This document shows positions 11,271 to 64,000 of a DNA stretch of 64,000 nt, piece after piece. The notes below the pieces were generated by a model that was not told where the DNA came from, did no database searches, and saw nothing but the letters and a program-made list of their open reading frames with translations. The DNA is from an uncultured Verrucomicrobiae bacterium. Its GTDB lineage: Bacteria; Verrucomicrobiota; Verrucomicrobiia; Chthoniobacterales; JAATET01. How positions within the stretch are numbered: the first letter of the stretch is position 1; every line of letters begins with the position of its first letter. The translations under genes were made by a program, and so were the position numbers. Location: assembly GCA_963761705.1 (NCBI GenBank), contig CAVXHK010000001.1, positions 259,140 through 323,139 on the forward strand. Reading direction: 5' to 3'.

Positions 11271-11637
11271 TTCCCGACCGCTCCGGTTCACCCGGGCGGC
11301 TCGATTGAATCTGAGCCACGAATTTTCCGCCGTGCGCGAGCGCGGCGAGACGACTCAAGGCCGTTACTTCCGGGTAACGGTCCTTCGTTTTCCCGGCGAG
11401 GACTTCGCCCCCCGCATCGGCTTCATCACGTCCCGCCGCGTCGGTCCTGCCGTCGCCCGCAACCGGGTCCGCCGCCAGTTGCGCGAGATTTTCCGCCTCC
11501 TCCAGCACGAAGTCGCCCGCGGGGTCTGGATCGTCGTCGTGGGCAAGCGGGCCGCGACCGGGACCGACTACGGCACGCTGCGAGAGGAATGGTTGCGTCT
11601 CGCCAGGCGGCTTTCTATTGTCCCCCAGCTCGAATGA
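11233..11637 (+). CDS. rnpA: Ribonuclease P protein component
   Basis: [25 protein letters not shown]...[21 protein letters not shown], and its position directly after rpmH. The start is uncertain, because GTG 11233 overlaps rpmH by 38 nt. Confidence 0.8.
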
Positions 11638-11900
11638 AACACCTGCTTTTGGCCCTCATCTACGGTTACCGCCTGGCGATCGTCCCGGCGTTGCGGTTCA
11701 TCGTCGGACCCAGCGGCTCCTGCCGCTACCAGCCGACGTGCTCGCACTACGCCATCGAGGCCATTGAAGTCCACGGCGCCGCGCGAGGCGGCTGGCTCGC
11801 GCTCAAACGAATCTGCCGTTGCCACCCCTGGGGTGGTCTCGGCGCCGACCCGGTGCCACCGGTCGCCCCCGTCGATCATCGCCCCCTCCGGCAGGGCTAA
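11634..11900 (+). CDS. yidD: Membrane protein insertion efficiency factor YidD
   Basis: [20 protein letters not shown]...[41 protein letters not shown] 11634 overlaps the rnpA stop (ATGA). Confidence 0.88.
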
Positions 11901-11915
11901 ACCTCTCTTCACCAA

Positions 11916-13748
11916 ATGGATCGCAAAACCTGGGTCGCCATCGGCCTCTCCATCCTCGCCTTCATCGCTTGGCAGTATTACTACACCGCCACCTACGGCG
12001 ATTTCATCAAGCAGCAGCAACTCGAGCGCGTCCGCCAAGCCGAGGAGCAAGCGGCCAATCCAACGCCAGCACCGACCGCGACTGCGCCCGGGACGACGCC
12101 GGCGACTGCCGACGCGGCGCCGACGCCACTCGCGCCCACTTCGACGATGTCCGCGCAGAGCGAGACGGTCAGCGCGGGACCGGGCGCGGATTTCAAGTTC
12201 AACAACGACACTGGCGGCATCGACACCGCCATCCTTCTTCTGCACCTCGGCGAGGACCAGGAGGCCGTCGGGATCAATAGTCACACGTCCATTCCCATCG
12301 GCGCGCTGGCTTTCGAACCCGGGCAATTCATCGGTGGCTTCGAGATGCGGGTCGACCGCACGCGGCGGCAGGTCATTTTTACCAATCAGCAACCCGACGG
12401 ACTCGAAATCACGAAGACCTTTACCGTCTCCGACGCCAACGCCGAGGTCTACGACGAGGAAACCGCCACCGATCCCGACGCGCCGAAGAACGACCCCTAC
12501 GTCGTCGATCTCGACGTCACGTTCCGCAATACCGGCACCGCACCCGTCCAACGCGACGGCTACTTCCTGAGCACGGGCGGAGCCGAGCCGATCCACGTGA
12601 AGGATCTGCCGACCTACACGCGCTTCGATTGGTCGAAAGACGGCGAGATGGAGGACATCGACGTCAATTGGTTCGGTGGATCGAGCATCCCAGTCGTCGG
12701 GATTTCCCTGCGCGACTCCGCGAATCTTTACGCGGAGTCTGCGGAAGAGGTCCAATGGGCCGCCGTCACGAGCCAGTATTTTTGCACGATCATCACGGCC
12801 AAGGGCGACACGGTCGGCAAGATGGTCACCGCCCAGCGCTACGCTGTTCCGAACGACCAAGGTAAGACGATCTACGGGATCCGAGGCTCCCTCGGGATGG
12901 GTGCGTTCGAACTCGCTGCGGGCGAGGCGACCAGCGCGAAGTTCGAGATCTACGCCGGCCCGAAGGACCTCAACCGCCTCCGCTCCCTCGGCGGCAACCA
13001 CGAGGAGGTCATGAACTTCGGCATGTTCGGCTTCGTGAGCAAATTTCTGCTCTGGGCCATGAACCTTCTCCACGGCGTCCTCCACAGCTACGCCGCGGCC
13101 ATCATCGTCCTCACGCTCTGCATCAAGTCCGCCCTCTGGCCGCTGCAGAACAAAGCGACCCAGTCGATGAAGCGCATGTCGCTGCTCTCACCGAAGATGA
13201 CCGAGCTTCGCGAGAAGTACAAGGATGACCCGACGAAGATGAACACGGAGCTCATGGGGCTCTACAAAAAATACAGCGTCAACCCCTTCAGCGGGTGCCT
13301 CCCGATGCTCGTTCAGATCCCGATTTTCTTCGGTTTCTACTCGATGCTCGGGACCGCCATCGAGCTTCGCAACAGCTCGTTCCTGTGGATCAACGATCTC
13401 TCGCAACCCGACACGGTCGGCCATTTCCTCGGCTTCCCGATCAATCTCCTCCCGCTCCTCATGGCCGGCTCGATGGTCTGGCAGATGGGAATCACGCCAA
13501 AGACGGGCGACAAGATGCAACAGCGCATGATGATGTTCATGCCCGTCATCTTCGTCGTCTTCGCCTACAACTACGCATCGGGCCTCTCGCTTTATTGGAC
13601 AACGCAGAACATCTTTTCTATCGTTCAGCTCTACCTCACGCGGAACCAACCGCTGCCGACGCTGGAGGAGAAAAAAAAGCCACCCGTTGCGCGCACCGGC
13701 GGCTCCTCGACGACGGCAAAAAGTCGAAAAAAACGCTCAAAACCATGA
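11916..13748 (+). CDS. yidC: Membrane protein insertase YidC
   Basis: 610 aa with a large periplasmic domain and a conserved 60-kDa-IMP core: LQNKATQSMKRMSLLSPKMTELREKYKDDPTKMNTELMGLYKKYSVNPFSGCLPMLVQIPIFFGFY. Confidence 0.93.
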   Translation: MDRKTWVAIGLSILAFIAWQYYYTATYGDFIKQQQLERVRQAEEQAANPTPAPTATAPGTTPATADAAPTPLAPTSTMSAQSETVSAGPGADFKFNNDTGGIDTAILLLHLGEDQEAVGINSHTSIPIGALAFEPGQFIGGFEMRVDRTRRQVIFTNQQPDGLEITKTFTVSDANAEVYDEETATDPDAPKNDPYVVDLDVTFRNTGTAPVQRDGYFLSTGGAEPIHVKDLPTYTRFDWSKDGEMEDIDVNWFGGSSIPVVGISLRDSANLYAESAEEVQWAAVTSQYFCTIITAKGDTVGKMVTAQRYAVPNDQGKTIYGIRGSLGMGAFELAAGEATSAKFEIYAGPKDLNRLRSLGGNHEEVMNFGMFGFVSKFLLWAMNLLHGVLHSYAAAIIVLTLCIKSALWPLQNKATQSMKRMSLLSPKMTELREKYKDDPTKMNTELMGLYKKYSVNPFSGCLPMLVQIPIFFGFYSMLGTAIELRNSSFLWINDLSQPDTVGHFLGFPINLLPLLMAGSMVWQMGITPKTGDKMQQRMMMFMPVIFVVFAYNYASGLSLYWTTQNIFSIVQLYLTRNQPLPTLEEKKKPPVARTGGSSTTAKSRKKRSKP

Positions 13749-14194
13749 TCCAAACGCCCAAGGAAATCCTCGACACGATCCTGGGCTACCTTGGTTTTGT
13801 GGTCGAAATCAAGGAGATGGAACGCGACGGCGCTCGGGTCCTCCAAATTTACACCCAGGACGCCGAGGCGTTGATCGGGCGGCAGGACCAGACGCTGGGC
13901 GACCTGCAATTCATCGTCAACCGCATCCTGCACATTCAGCAGCCCGACTCGCCGAAGATCGTCGTCGACGTCGAACACCACCGCGACATGCGCGACGACG
14001 CCCTCGTTCACAAGGCGCAGCAACTCGCCGAGACCGTCCGCCACGGCGGCCACGCGGTTCAGACCGAGCCGCTCAATTCCTACGATCGCCGCATCGTTCA
14101 CAACGTCTTTGCCGAAGACGCCGACCTCGAAACCTACAGCCCGCGGAGCGCCGACCGGGTCAAACGCATCACCATCCGCCGCCGGCGGTCGTAA
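13745..14194 (+). CDS. jag: RNA-binding protein Jag (KH + R3H domains)
   Basis: MIQTPKEILDTILGYLGF... and an R3H-type C-terminus EPLNSYDRRIVHNVFAED. ATG overlaps the yidC stop. It sits in the canonical position after yidC. Confidence 0.75.
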   Translation: MIQTPKEILDTILGYLGFVVEIKEMERDGARVLQIYTQDAEALIGRQDQTLGDLQFIVNRILHIQQPDSPKIVVDVEHHRDMRDDALVHKAQQLAETVRHGGHAVQTEPLNSYDRRIVHNVFAEDADLETYSPRSADRVKRITIRRRRS

Positions 14195-52575: not shown

Positions 52576-53085
52576 ATGTCCGGACAGTCCGCCGAAGCGC
52601 CAACGGACCGGATTCAGGAATTTCAGCTCGAATGCATCGAGCTATTCGCTCACGCTGCCCGCGCCCTGGCCTTGCCGAAGTCGGTCGGGCAGATCTACGG
52701 GTTGCTCTTTTCCAGCCAAACCGACTTGAGCCTCGACGAAGTGGCGCTCAAACTCAAAATCAGCCGGGGCTCGGCGAGTCAGGGCCTGCGCTGGCTCCGC
52801 GACATCGGGGCCGCGCGGCTGAGCTTCGTGCCCGGAGACCGGCGGGACCGCTTCACCGCCGAAACCGAGCTTCGCCGGCTGGCCACGGGATTTCTCCGGG
52901 AGACCGCCGAACCTCACCTCCGCAACGGCGAGGACCACCTGGCGCGATTGCAAGAATCGTGGAAGGAAATGGCCCCAAGCGAGGAACGTGAATTCTCCAA
53001 GAACCGCATCTCGAAGCTGCGCCGCTGGCACAAATTCGCCAACCAGACCCTCCCGCTCATCCTCAAGGTCGCGGGGAAATTCTAA
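52576..53085 (+). CDS. GbsR/MarR-like winged-helix transcriptional regulator
   Basis: LPKSVGQIYGLLFSSQTDLSLDEVALKLKISRGSASQGLRWLRDIGA looks like a wHTH. The start is ambiguous between GTG 52540 and ATG 52576. Confidence 0.55.
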   Translation: MSGQSAEAPTDRIQEFQLECIELFAHAARALALPKSVGQIYGLLFSSQTDLSLDEVALKLKISRGSASQGLRWLRDIGAARLSFVPGDRRDRFTAETELRRLATGFLRETAEPHLRNGEDHLARLQESWKEMAPSEEREFSKNRISKLRRWHKFANQTLPLILKVAGKF

Positions 53086-53179
53086 ATTGCTCGGAAGGTC
53101 CCTGGTCAAAAAGTTATTTGAGAATCGTTGGAGCGATTGATTTCGAACCGTCGATCCTCCTCCGCCGACCTTTGACGTC

Positions 53180-53315
53180 CCGACCTTCCGACCTTCCGAC
53201 CTTCCGACCTTCAGACCTTCAGACCTTCAGACCTTCAGACCTTCAGACCTTCAGACCTTCAGACCTTCAGACCTTCCGACCTTCCGACCTTCAGACCTTC
53301 CGACCTTCCGACCTT
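53180..53315. repeat. 17 tandem copies of the 8-bp unit C[C/A]GACCTT, ending 2 nt before the gmd ATG
   Basis: Counted by hand: 4x CCGACCTT, 8x CAGACCTT, 2x CCG, 1x CAG, 2x CCG. The array occupies exactly 53180..53315. Confidence 0.9.
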
Positions 53316-53317
53316 TT

Positions 53318-54370
53318 ATGAAAACAGCAATGATCACCGGGATCACCGGTCAAGACGGGTCCTACCTCGCCGAGCAACTTCTCGCGAAGGGATACGAAGT
53401 CCACGGCATGATCCGCCGCTCCAGCAGCTTCAACACCGAGCGGATCGACCACCTCTACCGCGACCCGGAGATTCTCGACAAAAAGCTCTTCCTCCACCAC
53501 GGCGACCTCACCGATTCGTCCAACCTCAACCGTCTGCTCGAGAAGATCGGCCCGGACGAGATCTACAACCTCGGTGCGCAGAGCCACGTGAAGGTTTCGT
53601 TCGAAGTCCCGGAGTACACCGCCGAAGTCGACGGGATCGGCACCCTTCGCTTCCTCGACGCCATCAAAGAGGTCGGTCTCAAGGACAAGGTCCGGTTTTA
53701 CCAGGCCTCGACCAGCGAGCTCTACGGCCTCGTCCAGGAGGTCCCGCAGACCGAGAAGACCCCGTTTTATCCCCGCTCGCCCTACGGCGTCGCCAAGCTC
53801 TACGGCTATTGGATCATCGTCAACTACCGCGAGTCCTACGGGATCCACGCGTCGAACGGCATCCTCTTCAATCACGAATCTCCCCGTCGCGGTGAGACGT
53901 TCGTCACCCGCAAGATCACCCGCGCCGCCGGTCGCATCAAGGAAGGTCTCGAAGATTGCCTGTTCATGGGCAACATCGACTCCCAGCGCGACTGGGGCTA
54001 CGCGCCCGAATACACGGACGCCATGTGGCACATCCTCCAGCAAGACGAACCCGGCGATTACGTCGCCGCCACGAACGAGATGCACTCCGTTCGGGAGTTC
54101 ATCGACGAGACGTTCAAGCACCTCGGCATGGAACTCGAGTTCCGGGGCGAAGGCGTCAACGAGACCGGCGTCGAGAAATCAACCGGTCGGACGCTCTTCC
54201 GCATCGACCCCAGCTACTTCCGCCCCGCCGAAGTCGAACTCCTCATCGGGGACGCCACCAAAGCCAAGGAAACCTTCGGCTGGGAACCGAAAACGAAATT
54301 CGCCGAACTGGTCAAGATCATGGCCGACGCCGACTGGAAGCTCGCGCAGAAAGAGCGAAGGAATAAGTGA
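53318..54370 (+). CDS. gmd: GDP-mannose 4,6-dehydratase
   Basis: [47 protein letters not shown]...YGVAKLY...[10 protein letters not shown]. Confidence 0.95.
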
Positions 54371-54558
54371 GTCGCAAGGTCCAAGGTCGAAGCGTCAGGT
54401 CAGAATCGCTGGTGCGATTGAAGCTGGGGAGCGCACGCGTCCCCGCGTGTGAGATGCGGCGTCCCGCCGCATCGCAGCAAGCACTTTGGTAGGGCAGGCC
54501 GTCCGCGCCCACCGCCATCCCTACGGCCCATCAAAAAAATCGCACCAGCGATTCAATC

Positions 54559-54667
54559 CCGACCACTCCGACCACTCCGACCACTCCGACCACTCCGACC
54601 ACTCCGACCACTCCGACCTTCCGACCTTCCGACCTTCCGACCTTCCGACCTTCCGACCTTCCGACCC
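54559..54667. repeat. Tandem array of 6x CCGACCACT (9 bp), then 6x CCGACCTT (8 bp) plus a partial unit, ending 11 nt before the exosortase ATG
   Basis: Counted by hand: 9-mers span 54559..54612, 8-mers span 54613..54660, and a partial CCGACCC follows. Confidence 0.9.
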
Positions 54668-54678
54668 GAGAACATCCC

Positions 54679-55599
54679 ATGCAACCCCCCGAAACCATGA
54701 CCCAACCAAAGAACCGCGCCCACACCGTCGCGTTTCCGGAGTGGGCACCCTTCGCGATCATCACGTTAATCTGGCTGCCGGCGCTGATGCGATTCAGCGT
54801 CGAGTGGTCGATCAATCCGCAGTATTACTACGGTTGGTCGGTTCCGCTGCTTTCGGCCTACCTGATCTACGATCGATGGTTGGCGCGGCCGACACCGGTC
54901 CCGCCCGAGCGGATACTGGTGCCGGCGATATTGATTATCCTGTGCGCCTTGCCGCAGTTGCCCCTGCGTCTGGTCGGCGAGGCGAACACGGATTGGCGGT
55001 TCGTTTCCTGGATCATGGGGCTGAACGCGTTGGCGATCGGCCTCGCGATCCTCTACATCCAAGGCGGTTGGCGGTGGCTGGGCTTCTTCGCTCTCCCAGT
55101 TCTTTTTCTGCTCACCGCCATCCCGTGGCCGTCCGGTGCCGAGAAGCTGCTGGTTCAGGGCCTGATGCGCGTCAACGCCGAGATCGCCGCCAACCTCGTC
55201 GGAATCGTCGGCATCCCGGCGGTCGCTCAGGGCAACGTGATCGAGGTGCCCACCGGGGTGTTGGGCGTCAACGAGGCCTGCAGCGGCATCCGGTCTCTTC
55301 AATCCACCCTCATGGCCGCCGCCTTCTTGGGATTGCTTTACCGACGGTCTTTGATCGGCCTCGGCTGCCTGATTTTCCTCGGTTCCCTCATCGCGTTCGT
55401 CTGCAACGTCATCCGCACAACGTTCCTCACCTACCAGGGAGCCACGAACGGCATCGAAGCCGTCGACAAGTGGCACGACTCAGCCGGATTCTTCATTCTC
55501 GGCGTCGTGCTCGTGTGTCTGTGGGGGATGAGCCAGTGGCTCGAGCGCTCGGAAAGGAAAGGATCTGAACGAAAGAGTGCTGAGGAAGCAAAGGTCTGA
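54679..55599 (+). CDS. Exosortase (Xrt family transpeptidase)
   Basis: Polytopic membrane protein with YYYGW near the N-terminus, the catalytic-Cys region VNEACSGIRSL, a later NVIRT, and His in DKWHDSAGF. Confidence 0.85.
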   Translation: MQPPETMTQPKNRAHTVAFPEWAPFAIITLIWLPALMRFSVEWSINPQYYYGWSVPLLSAYLIYDRWLARPTPVPPERILVPAILIILCALPQLPLRLVGEANTDWRFVSWIMGLNALAIGLAILYIQGGWRWLGFFALPVLFLLTAIPWPSGAEKLLVQGLMRVNAEIAANLVGIVGIPAVAQGNVIEVPTGVLGVNEACSGIRSLQSTLMAAAFLGLLYRRSLIGLGCLIFLGSLIAFVCNVIRTTFLTYQGATNGIEAVDKWHDSAGFFILGVVLVCLWGMSQWLERSERKGSERKSAEEAKV

Positions 55600-55712
55600 A
55601 GATGCATTGAAACCCACCCGGTGTGGCTGGAGTCTGGCTCGACCTGAATAGGATTCGTGTCATCCGGCGGACCGAAAGGGGGTGGCTTTCAATCCAATCG
55701 AAGCTAAATTGC

Positions 55713-56042
55713 ATGACAATGCTGCAACAACGCGACGAGCAGCGAAGGCAAACGCGCCTCGAGCTTTTCGACGAGACCCGGCGAACGCTTTTTGCCGAGC
55801 TTCGTGCCCGGCTCCCCCGCGGGACGGTGGTATGGATCTTTGGCTCGTTGGCTCGACGAGGAGTCTTCAACGCAGCTTCCGACGTCGACATCGCTCTGGA
55901 ATGTGAGCCAGCGGGGTCGAGTTGTTTTCGCCTGAGTTCCGAGTTGGACGAAGCTGTTGGCCGCCCCGTCGATGTGGTGCTGCTGAATGAAAGTCGGCTG
56001 GCCGCTCAGATCCAAAGCGCGGGAGAAAAATGGACGCTATAG
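55713..56042 (+). CDS. Nucleotidyltransferase (MNT-type antitoxin)
   Basis: VWIFGSLARRGVFNAASDVDIAL matches the GS-x-RG...DxD minimal nucleotidyltransferase motif. It overlaps the next gene by 13 nt. Confidence 0.75.
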   Translation: MTMLQQRDEQRRQTRLELFDETRRTLFAELRARLPRGTVVWIFGSLARRGVFNAASDVDIALECEPAGSSCFRLSSELDEAVGRPVDVVLLNESRLAAQIQSAGEKWTL

Positions 56043-56512
56043 GCTTGGCCACGCTGCATCGGGAAATGCAGGAGGATGTGCGCGTGATGCACGACGCGTT
56101 CGATCTTGCGACGGAGCGTTTTTCCCACGCTGGAGCGATGGGCTTGGAGTCGACGGCGCATCATTTATGCCGGTTCTACAACGCGTGCGAACAAATGGCT
56201 TTGCGAGTGGCGAAGGCATTCGAAAATCATATCGATGACGACCGAGGATGGCACACCGCTCTCCTCACGCGGATGAGCCTGGAGATCGGAGGGATTCGCC
56301 CGGCCCTGATCCCGTTGGATCTCAAACCCGATCTCCAAGAGTTGAAAGGGTTTCGACACGTTTTCGTTCATGCTTACGAGTTGCGGTTGGACGAAGAAAA
56401 GCTGCGATTGCTTATCCAATACGCCGGCCGGGTGAATGCGCGGTTGGATGAAATGATCAAAGTCTTCGCGGATCGTGCTTTCGAAGACGCAGATCCGGAT
56501 TCTACATCGTAG
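56030..56512 (+). CDS. HEPN-type (HepT-like) putative ribonuclease toxin
   Basis: Helical 160-aa protein with an R-x4-H motif in GFRHVFVHAY. Paired with the upstream MNT gene. Confidence 0.6.
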   Translation: MDAIGLATLHREMQEDVRVMHDAFDLATERFSHAGAMGLESTAHHLCRFYNACEQMALRVAKAFENHIDDDRGWHTALLTRMSLEIGGIRPALIPLDLKPDLQELKGFRHVFVHAYELRLDEEKLRLLIQYAGRVNARLDEMIKVFADRAFEDADPDSTS

Positions 56513-56674
56513 AAGTCGAGTGAACGGGTAGCTGGTAATACTAACGAGCAACCAGCAACTCACATCCGGGAAGCTCGCAGAGCTCCTCCCCAGCGCGGAT
56601 GAAATCATGAATTCCGCGATGTTCCTCGGGACAAACATCGCGACGATCAAGAGCGTCGTGAGGAGCTTTTGATT

Positions 56675-57413
56675 CTCGCGCAGAGGCGCAGAGGCGCAGA
56701 GATTGATACAAATGGCGATGGGTTTCACGCAAAGAGCGCTAAACCTACAGATCAGCTGTTTCCAAAAACAAAAACTCAATAACTATCACCTGTATCTCAG
56801 CCCTCAGCGCCTCCGCGCCTCTGCGGGAGAAAAGCATTCAATACAGGAACTCGCGCAACCGAAGGCTCGGGGGAGCCGAAGGTAGACGAAAAGCCCGAAG
56901 GGTGACCGAGCTGGGTTGCGAGGGAATCAAAGACGCAGAGGCGCAGAGATTGATACAAATGGCGATGGGTTTCACGCAAAGAGCGCTAAACCTACAGATC
57001 CGCTAATTCCAATAACTAGTAACTGTATCTCAGCCCTCCGCGTCTCTGCGCCTCTGCGGGCTAAAAGTATCAATACAGGGACTCGCGCAGAGACGCAGAG
57101 GCGCAGAGATTGATACAAATGCGGATCAGGAAGAGCTGAGAGAGAAGAACGGATGAAAGCCAAAAAAGCTAAATCTTAAAAAGAATCCCCTCCGCGTCTC
57201 TGCGCCTCTGCGGGCTAAAAGTATCAATACAGGGACTCGCGCAGAGGCGCAGAGATTCATACAAATGCGGATGAGAAAAGGCTGAAAGAGAAGAACAGGG
57301 GAAATTAAAGGAAGCTGAATCTTCTAAAGAATCCCCTCCGCGTCTCAGCGCCTCTGCGCGATTCATCGTATTATGCAACCAGAGGGTGAGGTTCGCGCGG
57401 AGGCGCGGGAAGA
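56675..57413. repeat. Mosaic palindromic-repeat zone 1 (hairpins plus B/C/D modules)
   Basis: An R arm lies at 56675..56701. Hairpins lie at 56801..56948 (with a D insert), 57034..57108 and 57187..57254, plus a degenerate one ending at 57413. Confidence 0.85.
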
Positions 57414-57469
57414 GTGTTAGTTGTTGGCTGGACGGTGGACATGACGAAACTACATGATATGTTTTTCGG

Positions 57470-57721
57470 ATGAGTGAATCGACATTGACCGAACGGGGAC
57501 AGGTATCCATCCCGGCGAAAATACGTAAATCCATGGGGTTGAAAGCTGGGCAACGGCTGCAATGGGAGCAGGTGTCCGCTCTGGAGTGCCGTATCTCCGC
57601 AATCGAGCCGCACGGTGACGGTCCACTTTCTGTATTGGGGTATGCCGCAAGGATTCGGGAGAATTCCGGACGTTCGACCGACGATTGGATGAAAGAGTTG
57701 CGAGCGGGCGAGATGCAATAG
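57470..57721 (+). CDS. AbrB/MazE/SpoVT-type antitoxin
   Basis: LTERGQVSIPAKIRKSMGLKAGQRLQWE is a swapped-hairpin DNA-binding motif. A PIN gene starts 4 nt downstream. Confidence 0.75.
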   Translation: MSESTLTERGQVSIPAKIRKSMGLKAGQRLQWEQVSALECRISAIEPHGDGPLSVLGYAARIRENSGRSTDDWMKELRAGEMQ

Positions 57722-57724
57722 CCC

Positions 57725-58147
57725 ATGTGGATTGTTGACACCTGCATTGTCCTCGATGTGTTCGAGGATGATCCCGAGTTTGGGAGAAAATCGGCGAACC
57801 TGCTTGAAAAACTATGTGGCGAAGGACTCTGCATCTGCCCCGTAACCATGGTCGAGCTGTCTCCAGCCTTTCAAGGCGATCTCTCGGAGCAGAAAAAATT
57901 CCTCTCGCTTGCCCGCATCTCGTTTTCCGCGAATTGGTCAGTTTTGGATACCGAAACGGCCCATCAGGCGTGGAGTGATTATGTCCACCTCCGCCGTCGC
58001 GAGGTCACACCAAGACGCCCGATCGCGGACATCCTGATCGGGGCATTCGCGTCAAATCGAAAAGGTTTGGTGACTCGGAACGCCAAAGACTTTCGACCTT
58101 GGTATCCCAAACTTGCCATCCAGGAGTCCGGCGCATCCTCCGGGTAG
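57725..58147 (+). CDS. PIN-domain toxin (VapC-like)
   Basis: MWIVDTCIVLDVF (first acidic residue), VTMVELS, IADILIGAFA, LVTRNAKDF. Confidence 0.8.
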   Translation: MWIVDTCIVLDVFEDDPEFGRKSANLLEKLCGEGLCICPVTMVELSPAFQGDLSEQKKFLSLARISFSANWSVLDTETAHQAWSDYVHLRRREVTPRRPIADILIGAFASNRKGLVTRNAKDFRPWYPKLAIQESGASSG

Positions 58148-58769
58148 CTAATAACCAGTAACCAATAACTGTATCTCAGCCCTCCGCGTCTCCGCGCCTC
58201 TGCGGGCTAAAAGTATCGATACAGGAACTCGCGCAGAGGCGCAGAGACGCAGAGATCGATACAAATGCGGATGATGAAGAGCTGAAAAGAAGAACGGATG
58301 ATATCCAAAGAAGCTAGATCTTAAAAAGAATCCCCTCCGCGCCTCTGCGCCTCTGCGGGCTAAAAGTATCAATACAGGAACTCGCGCAGAGGCGCAGAGA
58401 TTGATACAAATGCGGATGATGAAGAGTTGAAAAGAAGAACGGATGAAAATCAAAGAAGCTAAATCTTAAAAAGAATCCCCTCCGCGTCTCTGCGCCTCTG
58501 CGGGCTAAAAGTATCAATACAGGAACTCGCGCAACCGAAGGCTCGGGGGAGCCGAAGATAGACGAAAAGCCCGAAGGGTGACCGAGCTGGGTTGCGAGGG
58601 AATCAAAGACGCAGAGGCGCAGAGATTGATACAAATGAGGATGAGAAGGAGCTGAAACAGAAGAACGGATGAAATCCAAGGAAGCTAAATCTTAAAAAGA
58701 ATCCCCTCTGCGCCTCTGCGCCTCTGCGGGAGAAAAGTATCAATACAGGAACTCGCGCAGAGGCGCGAG
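58148..58769. repeat. Mosaic palindromic-repeat zone 2
   Basis: Includes the hairpin at 58332..58399, about four hairpin units in total, and D copy 58530..58596. Ends with a truncated R arm. Confidence 0.85.
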
Positions 58770-58832
58770 TCATTCCGAATCACGCAACTGATCCAAGTTG
58801 ACCGGGTTAAATGATCGCGTTACGATATCAAA

Positions 58833-59048
58833 ATGAAATCAATTCTCATCCGAAACGTCTCGCCCGAGACCGTTCAGCGGCTGAAGGCCAACGCCCGCGC
58901 TAATCATCGCTCGTTGCAAGGCGAGCTTCACGCATTGATTGAAGCGGGGATCGGCGTTCCCGACTCGTCGGAGCCCGAGTTCGAGCTGCGAACGGTGCGA
59001 ACCGATGGAACGCAGCGTTGGACCCGGGAAGAAATGTATGCGGATTGA
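58833..59048 (+). CDS. Ribbon-helix-helix (Arc/FitA-like) antitoxin
   Basis: MKSILIRNVSPETVQRLKANARANHRSLQGELHALIEAG is the typical RHH plasmid-stability N-terminus. It overlaps the downstream PIN gene by 11 nt. Confidence 0.7.
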   Translation: MKSILIRNVSPETVQRLKANARANHRSLQGELHALIEAGIGVPDSSEPEFELRTVRTDGTQRWTREEMYAD

Positions 59049-59511
59049 GCCGGGATCTCGGGTGAGTCTCGACACCAATGTCCTGCTAGACGCAACTGAC
59101 GAGGGTCGCGCTCGACACGGCGTTGCCATGCGACTCTTGGTCGAATCCCAGAGCCGTGGAATCGGCCTCTTCGTCGCAGCGCAAGTGATCCGCGAATATC
59201 TCGTAGTCGCCACCCGACCTCTTACGGCGAACGGTCTCGATCTTTCCATTGACGATGCGCTTTTCAACGTCCGGCAGTTGACGCGCCAAACCACCCTCCT
59301 CTGGGAGACCGTCGGGGCCTCCCAACTCTTTCTCGACTGGGCCCGGGAGCTTGGCGTTACGGGCACGAAACTTCACGACCTCCAGATCCTTGCCACGACT
59401 CACAGCGCTGGCATCCCGTGCCTCGTGACCTCGAACATCGACGATTTTCCGTCCAGAGTCGGCCCGCTCGTCTTCCCTCTCGGCGAATTGGACTGGGGGA
59501 ATGGGGACTAA
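59038..59511 (+). CDS. PIN-domain toxin (VapC-like)
   Basis: VSLDTNVLLDATDEG, AAQVIREYLVVATR, HDLQILATTHSAGIPCLVTSNIDDF. Start taken at MRIEPG. Confidence 0.75.
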   Translation: MRIEPGSRVSLDTNVLLDATDEGRARHGVAMRLLVESQSRGIGLFVAAQVIREYLVVATRPLTANGLDLSIDDALFNVRQLTRQTTLLWETVGASQLFLDWARELGVTGTKLHDLQILATTHSAGIPCLVTSNIDDFPSRVGPLVFPLGELDWGNGD

Positions 59512-59629
59512 GGATCCATTAGGTTCAGTCGGGTCAGGGCCCGTGCCCGTCTCCCGCCTCGAGGACAGGTTTCAACAATTACCCCGACGAGTCCTTGGCC
59601 CGTCAGTTCGATCCTGCCGTTTTCTAATT

Positions 59630-60263
59630 CCTCTCTGCGTCTCAACGCCTCTGCGGGAAAAAAGTATCGATACAGGAACTCGCGCAACCGAAGGCTCGGG
59701 GGAGCCGAAGATAGACGAAAAGCCCGAAGGGTGACCGAGCTGGGTTGCGAGGGAATCAAAGGCGCAGAGGCGCAGAGAATGAAGATGCTGGTGGGTTTCA
59801 CCCAAAGAGCGCTAAACCTACAGATCAGCTAATTCCAATAACTATCAACTGTATCTCAGGCCTCCGCGCCTCCGCGCCTCCGCGGGCTAAAAGTATCAAT
59901 ACAGGGACTCGCGCTGAGACGCAGAGGCGCAGAGAATGAAGATGGCTATGGGTTTCACGCGGTTCCTGCACGAAGAGCTACTGATTAGATATTTCCAACA
60001 ACAAAAACTCAATAACTATCAACTGTATCTCAGCCCTCCGCGTCTCTGCGCCTCCGCGGGAGAAAAGTATCGATACAGGGACTCGCGCAGAGGCGCAGAG
60101 GCGCAGAGAATGAAGATGGCGATGGGTTTCACGCAAAGAGCGCTAAATTTACAGATCAGCTAATTCCAATAATTAGTAACTGTATCTCAGCCCTCCGCGC
60201 CTCTGCGCCTCTGCGGGAGAAAAGTATCAGTATCAATCCAGGAACTCGCGCAGAGACGCAGAG
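59630..60263. repeat. Mosaic palindromic-repeat zone 3
   Basis: Four hairpin units, three C modules, and D copy 59683..59749. Confidence 0.85.
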
Positions 60264-60285
60264 AGTGGTGAAGGGTCCTTGAAAA

Positions 60286-60669
60286 ATGACGGAGAATGAG
60301 ATCGGAACGAAGGTTCTGGAGGTATCGATTGAAATCCACAGGGAGCTGGGTCCCGGGCTGCTTGAAACGGTTTACGAAGTGGTTCTGGCAAAGGAACTGT
60401 CTTTACGTGGCCTGATTGTGCAGCGCCAGGTGCCGGTGCCAATCCTGTGTCGCGGAACTCGGTTTGATGAAGGTTTTCGCGCTGATCTGATTATTAACCG
60501 GACCGTCCTTCTGGAACTCAAATCTGTCGAAAAGGTAATCCCTGCCCACAAGAAGCAAGTGCAGACCTACCTGCGACTCACTGGTATCAAGCTGGGTTAT
60601 CTTTTGAACTTTGGTGAGTCTGTTCTGAAAAGTGGGATCACTCGCTGCGTCAATGGCCTCGAATCATGA
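60286..60669 (+). CDS. GxxExxY family protein (PD-(D/E)XK nuclease-like fold)
   Basis: GLLETVYE, RADLIINRTVLLELK, GYLLNFG. An R arm ends 22 nt upstream and an L arm starts 3 nt after the stop. Confidence 0.8.
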   Translation: MTENEIGTKVLEVSIEIHRELGPGLLETVYEVVLAKELSLRGLIVQRQVPVPILCRGTRFDEGFRADLIINRTVLLELKSVEKVIPAHKKQVQTYLRLTGIKLGYLLNFGESVLKSGITRCVNGLES

Positions 60670-60672
60670 ATT

Positions 60673-61115
60673 CCCTCCGCGCCTCTGCGCCTCTGCGGGC
60701 TAAAAGTATCAATCCAGGAACTCGCGCAGAGGCGCAGAGATTGAAGATGCGATGGGTTTCAAGCGGCCCTCGAGCGAAGAGCGGCAGGTCTACAGATCAA
60801 CTGCTCCCAATACCCAATAACTATCACCTGGATCTCAGCCCTCAGCGCCTCCGCGCCTCTGCGGGCTAAAAGCATTCAATACAGAAACTCGCGCAACCGA
60901 AGGCTCGGGGGAGCCGAAGATAGACGAAAAGCCCGAAGGGTGACCGAGCTGGGTTGCGAGGGAATCAAAGACGCAGAGACGCAGAGATTCATACAAATGC
61001 GGATGAGAAAAGGCTGAAAGAGAAGAACAGGGGAAATTAAAGGAAGCTGAATTTTGTAAAGAATCCCCTCAGCGTCTCAGCGCCTCTGCGGGAGAAAAGT
61101 ATCAATACAGGGACT
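60673..61115. repeat. Mosaic palindromic-repeat zone 4
   Basis: Hairpin at 60673..60739, a C module, a hairpin with D copy 60892..60958, a B module, and a final L arm plus linker. Confidence 0.85.
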
Positions 61116-61160
61116 CGTTTAAGAATCGCGCAAGGTAGAGTCTTGCGCTAACATCCAGCA

Positions 61161-61478
61161 ATGACAACGATAGATATAGCCGCGAAGATCGCCCACCGAC
61201 TGATTGGCGGGCTGCCGGCTGAGCAAGTCTGGCTGTTTGGCTCGCAAGCCAGGGGCGATGCCTCGCCTGATAGTGATTTGGATATTCTCGCGGTCGTTGG
61301 CGAAGCAAAGCCGTCCCGGATACGGCAGACCGTTGAGGCCTATTCCCTCGTGGCAGACATCCATGCTCCCAAAGACATCATCATTCTGACTCGCGACCAG
61401 TGGACGCGACAGAAAGGCGTCGTAAACACGATTCCCTACCTTGCTCTCAAAGAGGGCATCCCGCTCCACGAGGGGTGA
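61161..61478 (+). CDS. Nucleotidyltransferase (MNT-type antitoxin)
   Basis: VWLFGSQARGDASPDSDLDILAV is the GSxxRG...DxD motif. Confidence 0.8.
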   Translation: MTTIDIAAKIAHRLIGGLPAEQVWLFGSQARGDASPDSDLDILAVVGEAKPSRIRQTVEAYSLVADIHAPKDIIILTRDQWTRQKGVVNTIPYLALKEGIPLHEG

Positions 61479-61484
61479 CTCAGG

Positions 61485-61913
61485 ATGACCCAAGAATACT
61501 TGCAAGTGGTTGAAGCTTGGTTGGCGAAGGCCGGGTCGGATCTTGCATCAGCCAAATTGTTGATCGAAAACGACGATCCGCATCTCGATACCGGCAGTTA
61601 CCATTGCCAGCAAGCCGCAGAAAAGGTCCTCAAAGGCTGGCTGACTGCTAACAAAGTCGAATTTCGCAAAACCCACGACATCTCTGAGCTTCTCGGCCAA
61701 TGCATTCAAATCGAGGTCAGCTTCCGAGCGTTCGAAGATGCCGGACGTTTCCTCCTGCCATTCGCCACCCAATTCCGCTATCCCGGAGACGTCTTCGAAC
61801 CGTCGCGGGATGAGGCTTTGGAAGCGTTCGAGTCAGCAGCCTCGATTGACTCCTTCGCTCCCGCTCATCTCGCCCTGCGGGCTACGCCGCAGAGCCGCCG
61901 TAGTCTGCCCTGA
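61485..61913 (+). CDS. HEPN domain protein (toxin partner of MNT)
   Basis: AWLAKAGSDLASAKLL...YHCQQAAEKVLKGWL...FRKTHDISELL...QFRYPG is a classical HEPN layout. It starts 6 nt after the MNT gene. Confidence 0.78.
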   Translation: MTQEYLQVVEAWLAKAGSDLASAKLLIENDDPHLDTGSYHCQQAAEKVLKGWLTANKVEFRKTHDISELLGQCIQIEVSFRAFEDAGRFLLPFATQFRYPGDVFEPSRDEALEAFESAASIDSFAPAHLALRATPQSRRSLP

Positions 61914-62035
61914 GGCGTCCCACGCCTCCGGTGCTCTCGACGCGGTTTGGTTTGACTTGAATGCGAAATTTCCGGGCCAGCTTGAATAAGGAAGCCCTTT
62001 GGACCCGCCTCGAATTTTAGACAGCTGACCGTTGC

Positions 62036-63081
62036 CCTCCGAGCCTCTGCGGGAAAAACACATCAATACAGGAACTTGCGCAACCGAAGGCTCGGGGGAG
62101 CCGAAGATAGACGAAAAGCCCGAAGGGTGACCGAGCTGGGTTGCTAGGGAATCAAAGGCGCAGAGACGCAGAGAATGATATAAATGCGGATGAGGAAGAG
62201 CTGAAAAGAAAGAACGGATAAGATCCAAGGAATCTAATCTTCAAAAGGATTCCCTCCGCGCCTCCGCACCTCTGCGGGCTAAAAGTATCGATACAGGAAC
62301 TCGCGCAGAGGCGCAGAGGCGCAGAGATTGATACAAATGCGGATCAGGAAGAGCTGAGAGAGAAGAACGGATGAAAGCCAAAGAAGCCAAATCTTCAAAA
62401 AAATCCCCTCCGCGCCTCTGCGCCTCTGCGGGCTAAAAGTATCAATACAGGGACTCGCGCAGAGGCGCAGAGGCGCAGAGATTGATACAAATGCGGATCA
62501 GGAAGAGCTGAGAGAGAAGAACGGATGAAAGCCAAAGAAGCCAAATCTTCAAAAAAATCCCCTCCGCGCCTCTGCGCCTCCGCGGGATAAAGTATCAATA
62601 CAGGAACTCGCGCAGAGACGCAGAGGCGCAGGAAGCTCGAGAAGGGAATTCGTAATACCAATACAGGGACTCGCGCAACCGAAGGCTCGGGGGAGCCGAA
62701 GATAGACGAAAAGCCCGAAGGGTGACCGAGCTGGGTTGCGAGGGAATCAAAGGCGCAGAGGCGCAGAGAATGAAGATGGCGGCGGATTCATCACGCAAAG
62801 AGCGCTAAACCTACAGATTAGCTGCTTCTAATAACTAATAACAAATAACTATCAACTGTATCTCATTCCCTCCGCGCCTCTGCGCCTCTGCGGGATAAAG
62901 TATCAATACAGGAACTCGCGCAACCGAAGGCTCGGGGAAGCCGAAGATAGACGAAAAGCCCGAAGGGTGACCGAGCTGGGTTGCGAGGGAATCAAAGGCG
63001 CAAAGGCGCAGAGAAGGAAAACCCGCTACCCAGTACCCGTATCTCATCGCCATTCCCTCTGCGCCTCCGCGCCTCTGCGGG
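62036..63081. repeat. Mosaic palindromic-repeat zone 5 (longest)
   Basis: About seven hairpin units and three D copies (62079..62145, 62674..62740, 62919..62985). Ends with a lone L arm at 63055..63081. Confidence 0.85.
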
Positions 63082-63240
63082 ATAATCACTCAGAACCTCA
63101 GAACGCACCTCCCCTCCCATGAAAAAAACAGTAATCATCGTTGCCTCCCGCTCGCCCGAGCGTGTCGCCCTACGGGCTGTCGCTCCACTCCAGGCTACCC
63201 CGACCGTCCCCATCGGTCCGGTGTTCTCTTCCACAAAAGC

Positions 63241-63930
63241 ATGAAAAAGTCACTTATCGTTCTTTTTTCCTCCGTCATCGGTTGGTTCGTCGTGTCCGAG
63301 GCGGCCACCGAGGCTTGGTACCGTTGGCACGAGATGCGGGCCGAGACGTCGGCGGAGTGGCAGGTCACCTGGCCGGACGAACCGGAATCGGATTGGGCCG
63401 TGCAGGATTTCACAGAGTTTCCAACCTCCGATCAAGTGCAGGAAGTTCTGCGCTACGACGAAATGCGCGGTGCCCGCTGGGTTGATCCCGCGTCCCGGGT
63501 CGCGTGGAACGTCAACTTCATCGAATGGGAGCCGGATAAGGATCTCAACGGCATCAATGCCGTTCACAACCCCACGATTTGTCTGCCGAGCGCTGGGATG
63601 CAGCTCGTCGAGACCCTGGGAGAACGGACTCTTGAGGTCGGTGGCCAGACGATCTCCTTCCAATGCTTCATCTTCGAGACCCAGGGTCGCCAACTCTACG
63701 TCTTCTCCGCTGCGAATCAGGAACTGAAATTGAAACCTGCAGACATGGAAGGTGCCGACTTCGGGCGAGCGAATCGCCTGGATACCGTGAATTCCGCCAA
63801 CCGCCAGGGTCCGCGCCAGGTCATGCACATCTACCTCATGGGGCCGCGCAGCTTCGACGAGGCGCTCGCGGAGCTGAAATCCGGACTCCAGAAGCTCGTG
63901 GAGGCGCAGCCCGCCCGGAAGAGCGCGTAG
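63241..63930 (+). CDS. EpsI family exosortase-associated protein
   Basis: N-terminal TM segment SLIVLFSSVIGWFVV and the hallmark segment AVHNPTICLPSAGMQLVE, followed by QLYVFS. 229 aa. Confidence 0.75.
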   Translation: MKKSLIVLFSSVIGWFVVSEAATEAWYRWHEMRAETSAEWQVTWPDEPESDWAVQDFTEFPTSDQVQEVLRYDEMRGARWVDPASRVAWNVNFIEWEPDKDLNGINAVHNPTICLPSAGMQLVETLGERTLEVGGQTISFQCFIFETQGRQLYVFSAANQELKLKPADMEGADFGRANRLDTVNSANRQGPRQVMHIYLMGPRSFDEALAELKSGLQKLVEAQPARKSA

Positions 63931-64000
63931 CGAGTGAAGGGTAGCGGGTCGCGCGTGGCGAGTGGGCGGTGGTTTCAGTGGGTGACAATAGGCGCAGAGG

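Follow-up and report, generated by a model that had tools for sequence, protein, structure and literature searches.

We analyzed a 64,000-nt stretch of DNA from an uncultured Verrucomicrobiae bacterium (here, the window), in which an islet of 7,641 nt is wedged between the exosortase (EpsH) gene and the EpsI partner gene of a polysaccharide-export (EPS) locus. An earlier note on this DNA, made from the sequence alone, had described the islet as four toxin-antitoxin (TA) pairs, each a discrete payload of a repeat system. Our results suggest, with modest confidence, that the islet is a lineage-specific mosaic array of palindromes acting as a recombination hot spot, where TA modules build up and host recombination does most of the shuffling.

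The conserved left flank of the islet is the exosortase gene (54679 to 55599, forward strand; Pfam Exosortase_EpsH, E value of 4e-43), whose orthologues lie next to arrays in four related loci, L001, L007, L009, and L010. The conserved right flank encodes an EpsI-like protein (63241 to 63930, forward strand) with a weak DUF3485 match and orthologues at 75 to 92% identity. Exosortase and EpsI belong together as partners: in a distant relative (L011/L012), a full-length EpsI homologue (E value of 4e-13) follows the exosortase gene after 13 nt, and in homologues at 43 to 47% identity both are fused into proteins of 520 to 530 amino acids carrying PF09721 and PF11984. Therefore, the islet is an insertion into a normally tiny gap. 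Its foreign character is seen in its GC content, 0.49 to 0.58 versus 0.60 to 0.68 in the flanks, and in the GC content at third codon positions, 0.56 to 0.70 in the cassette genes versus approximately 0.8 in the host genes.

From 56673 to 63085, the islet is a mosaic palindromic-repeat array on the forward strand, with approximately 22 co-oriented hairpins (as counted with a hidden Markov model built from nine copies) joined by two linker families, A of about 80 nt and B of about 85 to 100 nt; further linker types occur in relatives. The repeat is an imperfect palindrome of 65 to 80 nt, in which an L arm (CTCYGCGCCTCTGCGGG) and an R arm (CGCGCAGAGRCGCAGAG) enclose a 23-nt loop with the mini-palindrome GTATC(A/G)ATAC. 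The L arm is built of 8-nt units (CTCYGCGC CTCTGCGC CTCTGCGGG), and the R arm is composed of CGCGCAGAGG CGCAGAG(G CGCAGAG). We counted 20 occurrences of the L-arm motif (0.19 expected), and the R-arm motif gave 31 matches on both strands against 0 expected, about half of which are L arms read on the minus strand. Every copy lies on the forward strand within the array; scans with both arm motifs found 0 copies in positions 1 to 56672 of the window. Seven copies carry a structured insert of roughly 75 nt just inside the R arm, after ACTCGCGCA, and a shortened form of the insert and a second loop type also occur. Tandem Repeats Finder identified 3.1 copies of a 154-nt unit of hairpin plus linker A at 62156 to 62631 on the forward strand (92% matches; score of 775) and further tandem blocks at 57034 to 57358 and 58180 to 58533, with periods of 145 to 154 nt. 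The three blocks are recent tandem duplications of the 145- to 154-nt unit of hairpin plus linker A.

Folded as single-stranded DNA, the hairpins have energies of −19.6 to −30.7 kcal/mol (z scores of −3.6 to −7.2), and the insert-bearing hairpin, which has nested stems, reaches −34 kcal/mol. The stem is a continuous helix of 19 to 26 bp with one G-G mismatch, and 87.7% of the cells are paired across 18 copies. Covariation in the stem equals the shuffled value, and its variation is not compensatory. Every copy of the R-arm insert (7/7) has a minus-strand terminator-like hairpin with a T-rich tail, at 56892 to 56912, 58568 to 58588, 59721 to 59741, 60930 to 60950, 62117 to 62137, 62712 to 62732, and 62957 to 62977. 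These terminator-like hairpins would be predicted to block antisense transcription into the cassettes.

The structures raise the question of whether a role in RNA or transcription is the main reason why the hairpins are kept, for instance in insulating, stabilizing, or punctuating exosortase-TA-EpsI transcripts, with the link to cassettes being secondary. Such a role is consistent with genes and hairpins being oriented like the flanking exosortase and EpsI genes, adjacent or fused elsewhere, and with the minus-strand terminator-like hairpin in every insert copy; moreover, the hairpins have no T-run and so would not terminate sense transcription. In Escherichia coli, repetitive extragenic palindromic (REP) sequences and bacterial interspersed mosaic elements (BIMEs) stabilize mRNA (PMC3184786). 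However, an Rfam search of positions 55000 to 64000 in E-value mode gave nothing above any gathering score, the stem lacks compensatory changes, and the tandem "empty" units have no gene to serve, which makes a mainly RNA-level role quite unlikely in our view. MicroRNA-precursor look-alikes below the Rfam thresholds were rejected as generic hairpins.

Cassettes and their boundaries

Protein families were assigned by Pfam profile matches, all above the gathering score, with NCBIfam models added. The profiles supported every family call of the earlier note, eight TA halves and a GxxExxY gene, and the positions and the overlaps of 13 and 11 nt given there were borne out. All five cassettes of the window (5/5) lie on the forward strand. 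Pair 1 consists of an MntA-like nucleotidyltransferase antitoxin (MNT; 55713 to 56042; Polbeta/NTP_transf_2, 3e-9; MntA, 7e-12, below the cutoff) and a HepT-like_2 HEPN toxin (56030 to 56512; PF20797, 6e-27, profile positions 2 to 109 of 110), whose genes overlap by 13 nt; the MNT protein has the GS...DxD motif as FGSLARRGVFNAASDVDI, and the HEPN protein has FRHVFVHAY, an Rx4HxY motif. In pair 2, an AbrB/MazE-fold antitoxin (57470 to 57721; MazE_antitoxin, 1.3e-6; AbrB domain, 3e-8) is followed after a 3-nt gap by a PIN (VapC-like) toxin (57725 to 58147; PIN, 1.7e-7; VapC, 8e-9). Pair 3 joins a FitA-like ribbon-helix-helix (RHH) antitoxin (58833 to 59048; PF22513, 2.5e-10) to a PIN (VapC-like) toxin (59038 to 59511; PIN, 4.7e-7), with an 11-nt overlap. 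A GxxExxY PD-(D/E)XK protein forms a single-gene cassette (60286 to 60669; PDDEXK_3, 1e-37; TIGR04256, 1.8e-37). Finally, pair 4 has an MNT antitoxin (61161 to 61478; NTP_transf_2, 6e-9; MntA, 4e-9) with the motif FGSQARGDASPDSDLDI and, after a 6-nt gap, a HEPN toxin (61485 to 61913; PF05168, 2.7e-21, profile positions 1 to 110 of 117) that shows RKTH/RYP only, without a clear Rx4-6H motif.

The PIN pairs fit the VapBC gene order, with the AbrB or RHH antitoxin gene directly 5' of the PIN gene, and VapC models match both below the equivalog cutoff. In pairs 1 and 4, the MNT gene lies 5' of the HEPN gene, as in MntA-HepT modules. HEPN/MNT modules are classed as type VII where characterized (NCBIfam MntA). 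Pairs 1 and 4 are, by sequence, predicted HEPN/MNT modules of a type VII-like kind; because such modules are type VII where characterized, only the two PIN pairs are type II-like, and the description of all four pairs as type II was not upheld. Promoter-like sites were found just 5' of the AbrB gene (57436 to 57463) and of the RHH gene (58798 to 58826), and the number of sigma-70-like promoters in the islet is at the chance level (4 versus 3.2). PADLOC matched only the two MNT proteins, and only to a candidate family; it identified no established defense system in the islet.

As seen along the array, each of the four downstream cassettes lies between a hairpin and the next L arm; therefore, the cassettes replace the linker. 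AbrB-PIN is preceded by a variant hairpin (57330 to 57413, forward strand) with an L arm, an alternative loop also found in L001, L005, and L010, and a degenerate R arm that ends at about 57410. The left junction of RHH-PIN is a hairpin (58700 to 58766, forward strand) whose R arm is cut at ...CAGAGGCGC|, and a full hairpin (60188 to 60265, forward strand; R arm end at 60263) stands directly 5' of the GxxExxY gene. These three upstream arms had been listed in the earlier note, to which we add a fourth, since a hairpin that breaks off where the loop meets the R arm (ACTCG|; 61063 to 61118, forward strand) precedes pair 4. On the other side, the L arms that had been placed after these four cassettes were confirmed, starting at 58182, 59632, 60675, and 62036, that is, 5 to 122 nt past the stop codon. 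The stop codon of the GxxExxY gene overlaps its downstream hairpin (60669 to 60746, forward strand), whose loop has the same rare AATCC variant as the loop of the upstream hairpin. The last element of the array is an L arm only (63052 to 63085, forward strand). Pair 1 is followed by a non-repeat tail of 160 nt (56513 to 56672) and then by an R arm at 56673 without an L arm or loop.

All four left junctions (4/4) fall within an R arm or at its end. Given that the R arm is about 18% of the 150-nt unit, the chance of this is roughly 0.001 by a post hoc estimate, and the closeness to an arm is partly automatic because nearly all of the nongenic islet DNA is repeat. The R arms at junctions are full, cut after 15 nt, or cut after 4 to 5 nt, and some junctions have an L arm only; several (ACTC|, ACTCG|, and ACTCGCGC(A)|) are clustered in about 8 nt where the loop meets the R arm. 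The end points of the truncated hairpins fit structure-dependent breakage, and a site-directed enzyme could also produce them.

The surroundings of the GxxExxY gene also bear on an explanation in which each R arm and the next L arm are the terminal inverted repeats of an element resembling a MITE (miniature inverted-repeat transposable element), with TA pairs as cargo of larger versions and the 23-nt loop as target. Complete arms, R on the left and L on the right, enclose the GxxExxY cassette, the AATCC variant shared by its two flanking loops resembles a target duplication, and the "empty" units of R arm, linker, and L arm have a MITE-like size of 125 to 135 nt. Nevertheless, there is no consistent target-site duplication, the arms are truncated or missing at most cassettes, and the copies are confined to tandem arrays, found at one or two loci, with none in the other 56 kb of the window. 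Moreover, no matching transposase was found, the ends of an insertion sequence (IS) of the IS5-like type in L009 being unrelated. We consider MITE-like mobility very unlikely.

Cassettes in related arrays

An exact scan for the loop motif in 185,579 species genomes returned four loci in three uncultured Verrucomicrobiae metagenome-assembled genomes (MAGs) from one Danish sample, and more loci of this sample were added by protein-guided look-ups. The hairpin loop and the insert motif had no match in JGI metagenomes, and no match was obtained in IMG/VR. In five related MAGs, the exosortase-EpsI gap spans 3 to 14 kb and holds the same kind of hairpins as the window, together with cassettes that are different, in permuted order, or recurring at other EPS-locus sites. 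In L010, the gap of 2,965 nt reads hairpin, PIN pair (reversed), hairpin, MNT/HepT, hairpin, 23S_rRNA_IVP protein, and EpsI. The gap of L007 (about 3.5 kb) has hairpins and cassettes that include two MNT genes, and that of L009/L005 (14,040 nt) contains at least 15 small genes, among them five MNT, four HepT/HEPN, PIN, HicAB-like, and UPF0175/DUF3368 genes and an IS5-like element. Apart from pair 1, the window and L005/L009 have no gene cassette in common, and otherwise the cassette content of the window differs completely from those of L005/L009, L010, and L007. The strain comparison proposed in the earlier note thus revealed a hypervariable cassette content at this locus, with cassettes that move between arrays.

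Pair 1 behaves differently. Window positions 52613 to 56687 are colinear with L009 7956 to 12057 at 83.6% identity, in a block that ends at the first R arm and includes the intact MNT/HepT-like_2 pair and its 160-nt tail; beyond this arm, only repeats are common to both. The L009 orthologues are intact (HepT-like_2, 160 amino acids, at 11367 to 11849), and the pair is not present in L001, L007, or L010. Since the pair, the tail, and the R-arm junction are kept in L009, pair 1 is an older conserved resident. The direct contact of its tail with an R arm had been noted correctly, and the same conservation speaks against the suggestion that the pair had inserted into a linker. The tail holds the end of a short in-frame open reading frame (ORF; 56607 to 56672 of the window, 21 codons; about 11935 to 12040 of L009, about 33 codons), which may be all that is left of a decayed cassette gene.

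Other cassettes have moved between arrays. AbrB-PIN has a 90% identical counterpart directly after the exosortase gene of L001, but it is pseudogenized there: the 5' end of AbrB is cut at a GTATC microhomology with the loop, and a TGG>TAA stop and an ATG>CTG change are present. The RHH-PIN core (58763 to 59557) is 94.6% identical over 795 nt to L002 5062 to 5856, a different locus beside a DegT aminotransferase gene. The proposed association of TA pairs with the arms extends to these copies, as RHH-PIN in L002 and AbrB-PIN in L001 both occur with arms. Four cassettes are common to L005 and L001, with their order permuted, and the pair 4 HEPN protein has a distant homologue pair at L008 7632 to 8376. 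An overlapping gene pair encoding 172 and 95 to 97 amino acids, without a Pfam match, occurs at 97% identity in L001 (2581 to 3383), L002 (6076 to 6878), and L005 (1060 to 1862), and may be an unclassified two-gene, TA-like module. The common core of this cassette starts 75 nt before the ATG, not at an arm, and its left flank differs in each array.

The arrays also bear traces of incomplete exchange. In L010, a 5' fragment of an MNT gene has been left behind, and genes are cut short by repeat modules. At L005 8318 to 8712 and L008 88 to 786, a diverged partial copy of EpsI is followed by a TA cassette (UPF0175/DUF3368 in L005 and MNT-HEPN in L008) and then by the intact EpsI gene. These partial copies are the footprint expected of single-crossover (Campbell-like) integration or of unequal exchange anchored in the flanking gene; recombination within that gene has enlarged the array. 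Furthermore, TA and GxxExxY cassettes without a hairpin are present in the same EPS clusters of L007, L008, and L010, so that the hairpins are frequent companions of such cassettes and not a requirement. L009 also carries, at 12746 to 14125, an IS5/IS4-like element with a DDE transposase and inverted ends of about 20 bp (GCTAGCAGCCTGTCGGACTT) inserted in the array; its ends are unrelated to the hairpin arms, and a similar element lies near EpsI in L006.

Known element classes and the mode of exchange

In behavior, the closest known systems are chromosomal integron arrays and clusters of attC sites lacking an integron integrase (CALINs). As in the islet, sedentary chromosomal integrons and CALINs, such as the Vibrio cholerae superintegron, have co-oriented small cassettes separated by homogeneous imperfect palindromes, with many TA cassettes and a content that is variable and shuffled among close relatives; CALINs have no nearby integrase. 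Integrons have been reported from Verrucomicrobia, and CALINs are frequent (PMC4889954). These likenesses argue for a canonical integron array that no longer has its integrase, or lies apart from it, with the hairpins as attC sites. However, attC sites are defined by an RYYYAAC/GTTRRRY core with an AAC cleavage triplet, extrahelical bases, and an unpaired central spacer (PMC5027507), and the islet fails on these tests. A regular-expression search of positions 55600 to 63240 on both strands gave 0 RYYYAAC...GTTRRRY pairs at 40- to 150-nt spacing and no RYYYAAC at all, and in the single-stranded DNA folds the continuous stem had no extrahelical bases, bulges, or unpaired central spacer. Identity with canonical attC was therefore rejected. 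Unlike integrons, the islet also has many 75- to 100-nt "cassettes" of two repeated linker families, variable junction positions, and TA cassettes with apparent promoter-like sites, and no IntI or attI was found. A tblastn search with IntI1 and with IS608 TnpA, the latter bearing on REP-associated tyrosine transposases (RAYTs), gave no match in the window or in L001 to L004, a weak negative, the accuracy of both query sequences being uncertain; IntI is not needed for a CALIN. On balance, a canonical integron origin is highly improbable.

In addition to attC, other site types were considered. The pdif modules of Acinetobacter plasmids are discrete units, often TA pairs, that have short recombination sites at their borders and occur in varied contexts. 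Their pdif sites are 28-bp XerC/XerD sites that alternate in orientation on plasmids, whereas the islet has direct repeats of 65 to 80 nt, is chromosomal, and lacks the dif-like 11-6-11 layout; on inspection, pdif/Xer-type sites were ruled out by layout and orientation. We likewise rejected a CRISPR-like array and a type III TA system with a repeat RNA antitoxin, given that the "spacers" also consist of repeats and that protein antitoxins are encoded.

In architecture, the nearest known elements are the BIMEs of E. coli and Neisseria intergenic mosaic elements (NIMEs). They have in common with the islet GC-rich palindromic units combined with a small set of recurrent linkers in clusters, and tandem growth in intergenic DNA. 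BIMEs and NIMEs are associated with recombination and variable loci (PMC3184786). In contrast to their palindromes of 21 to 65 nt, those of the islet measure 65 to 80 nt (about 145 nt with the insert); all units are direct, protein-coding cassettes lie inside the mosaic, and there are one or two EPS-locus sites per genome versus hundreds of dispersed copies. Dispersal of the REP type was not seen, neither in positions 1 to 56672 of the window nor in the genome scan, which placed the exact loop motif at only the four loci mentioned above. A smaller parallel is ccdO157, a TA system in the variable folA-apaH gap of E. coli with REP sequences, as summarized in PMC3184786 (citing Mine et al. 2009): according to that account, it too lies in a hypervariable gap between conserved genes, is present, decayed, or absent by strain, and is accompanied by palindromic repeats. 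As far as it is described there, the ccdO157 case comprises one TA system and one REP, versus up to 15 or more cassettes, more than 20 hairpins, and exchange between loci in the arrays reported here.

The wording of the earlier note, a payload of the repeat system, implies dedicated mobilization. In such a reading, the hairpins are sites of a dedicated, undescribed cassette system, a non-attC integron analogue or a HUH/Y1-type single-strand nuclease, with the enzyme encoded elsewhere. The architecture of repeat, payload, and repeat, the strong co-orientation, and the alternation of hairpins and cassettes along most of the L010 array argue for it, as do the placement of all four left junctions of the window in or at an R arm, the clustering of several junctions within about 8 nt, the cassettes common to arrays at different loci, and the stable folding of the hairpins as single-stranded DNA. 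Nevertheless, no candidate enzyme was found in any flank examined: Pfam scans of the ORFs in window positions 20.7 to 55.6 kb revealed no recombinase or transposase, and precomputed Pfam annotations of the flanks of L005, L007, L009, and L010 contained no PF00589 and no recombinase. There is no single crossover point, one cassette has differing left flanks across arrays that are not arm bounded, many adjacent cassettes have no hairpin between them (L005 6067 to 9594), and the stem shows no covariation. In addition, INS1 and INS2 are related, so that the insertion events are not all independent. A dedicated system is unlikely on this evidence. Of the earlier proposal, the cassettes as discrete, exchangeable units between hairpins were retained, and a dedicated mobilizing repeat system was not, given the lack of a recombinase, the failed attC tests, the absence of a fixed crossover point, and the existence of hairpin-free cassettes.

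We therefore return to the repeat scaffold shuffled by host recombination, which would operate as follows. The array would have grown in the normally tiny exosortase-EpsI gap, where small self-contained TA operons and other selfish genes, such as the GxxExxY gene, fill the "linker slots" between successive hairpins. The directly repeated modules of hairpin plus linker and the conserved flanking genes would provide portable homology, and the long palindromes would act as fragile sites, such that inter-hairpin segments could be deleted, duplicated, permuted, and swapped between arrays and genomes. We infer that host homologous and illegitimate recombination, and not an integron integrase, does the shuffling; heterogeneous junctions, truncated genes, partial EpsI copies, and tandem duplications favor host recombination with palindrome breakage. 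TA modules would persist and pile up because they are addictive and their loss is costly. As a by-product, they may stabilize the array and the neighboring EPS genes, an idea that draws on the analogy with TA cassettes in chromosomal integrons; a role of the islet in defense or stabilization of the EPS locus, as proposed earlier, is conceivable.

Several observations weigh against host recombination as the main agent. Approximately 85 to 90% of the cassettes are co-oriented with the hairpins, and the L010 array has one hairpin between neighboring cassettes (none before EpsI), an integron-like regularity. Unlike REP/BIME sequences, which are dispersed, the arrays are restricted to one or two EPS-locus sites in each genome. 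Hairpin likeness is 0.85 within a genome versus 0.77 to 0.86 between genomes, and because hairpins of one genome are no more alike, the homogenization that frequent recombination within arrays might produce is not seen. Breakpoints are nonuniform, clustering at the two stem-loop junctions and the R-arm end, which could be the product of a structure- or site-specific enzyme. Finally, the recombinase search is limited to the window and the flanks of related loci.

The locus behaves like an integron, with discrete, co-oriented TA cassettes that are punctuated by palindromes, hypervariable, and shared between arrays, but without attC or an integrase. If host recombination alone suffices, it would be a clean natural case of a repeat scaffold mimicking a dedicated gene-capture system, and integron and CALIN surveys based on "repeat plus small cassettes" would need careful reading. 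If instead an enzyme acts, this would be a new cassette-recombination system, and as a dedicated platform it would keep the polysaccharide loci of Verrucomicrobiae stocked with exchangeable TA and defense cassettes. EPS loci of this lineage are sinks for TA modules. Selfish DNA of up to 14 kb separates exosortase from EpsI, which prompts the question of how the expression of EpsI is kept up.

Flanking sequences

The EPS export genes 5' of the islet encode Poly_export, Wzz/tyrosine kinase, and TPR proteins and a GDP-mannose dehydratase, followed by the exosortase EpsH. The GDP-mannose dehydratase gene has perfect short tandem repeats on both sides, at window positions 53165 to 53315 and 54559 to 54667, consisting of GACCTTCM x17 (8 nt) and CCGACCACT/TCCGACCT x12 (9 and 8 nt). 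Similar gaps in relatives hold other micro- or minisatellites, such as the 7-nt GACATCT and 50-nt units of L005, and the hairpin arms themselves are 8-nt tandem units.

On the right side, an ORF of 41 amino acids lies just 5' of EpsI, at 63119 to 63244 (within window positions 63110 to 63250, which include the EpsI ATG). A homologue of positions 63110 to 63250 sits inside the L005 array, at about 2030 to 2115, where it leads directly into an L arm, so that the array's right-hand boundary has shifted. The window ends at 63988 to 64000 with AGGCGCAGAGG, which resembles the start of an R arm, and a further hairpin or array may follow EpsI.

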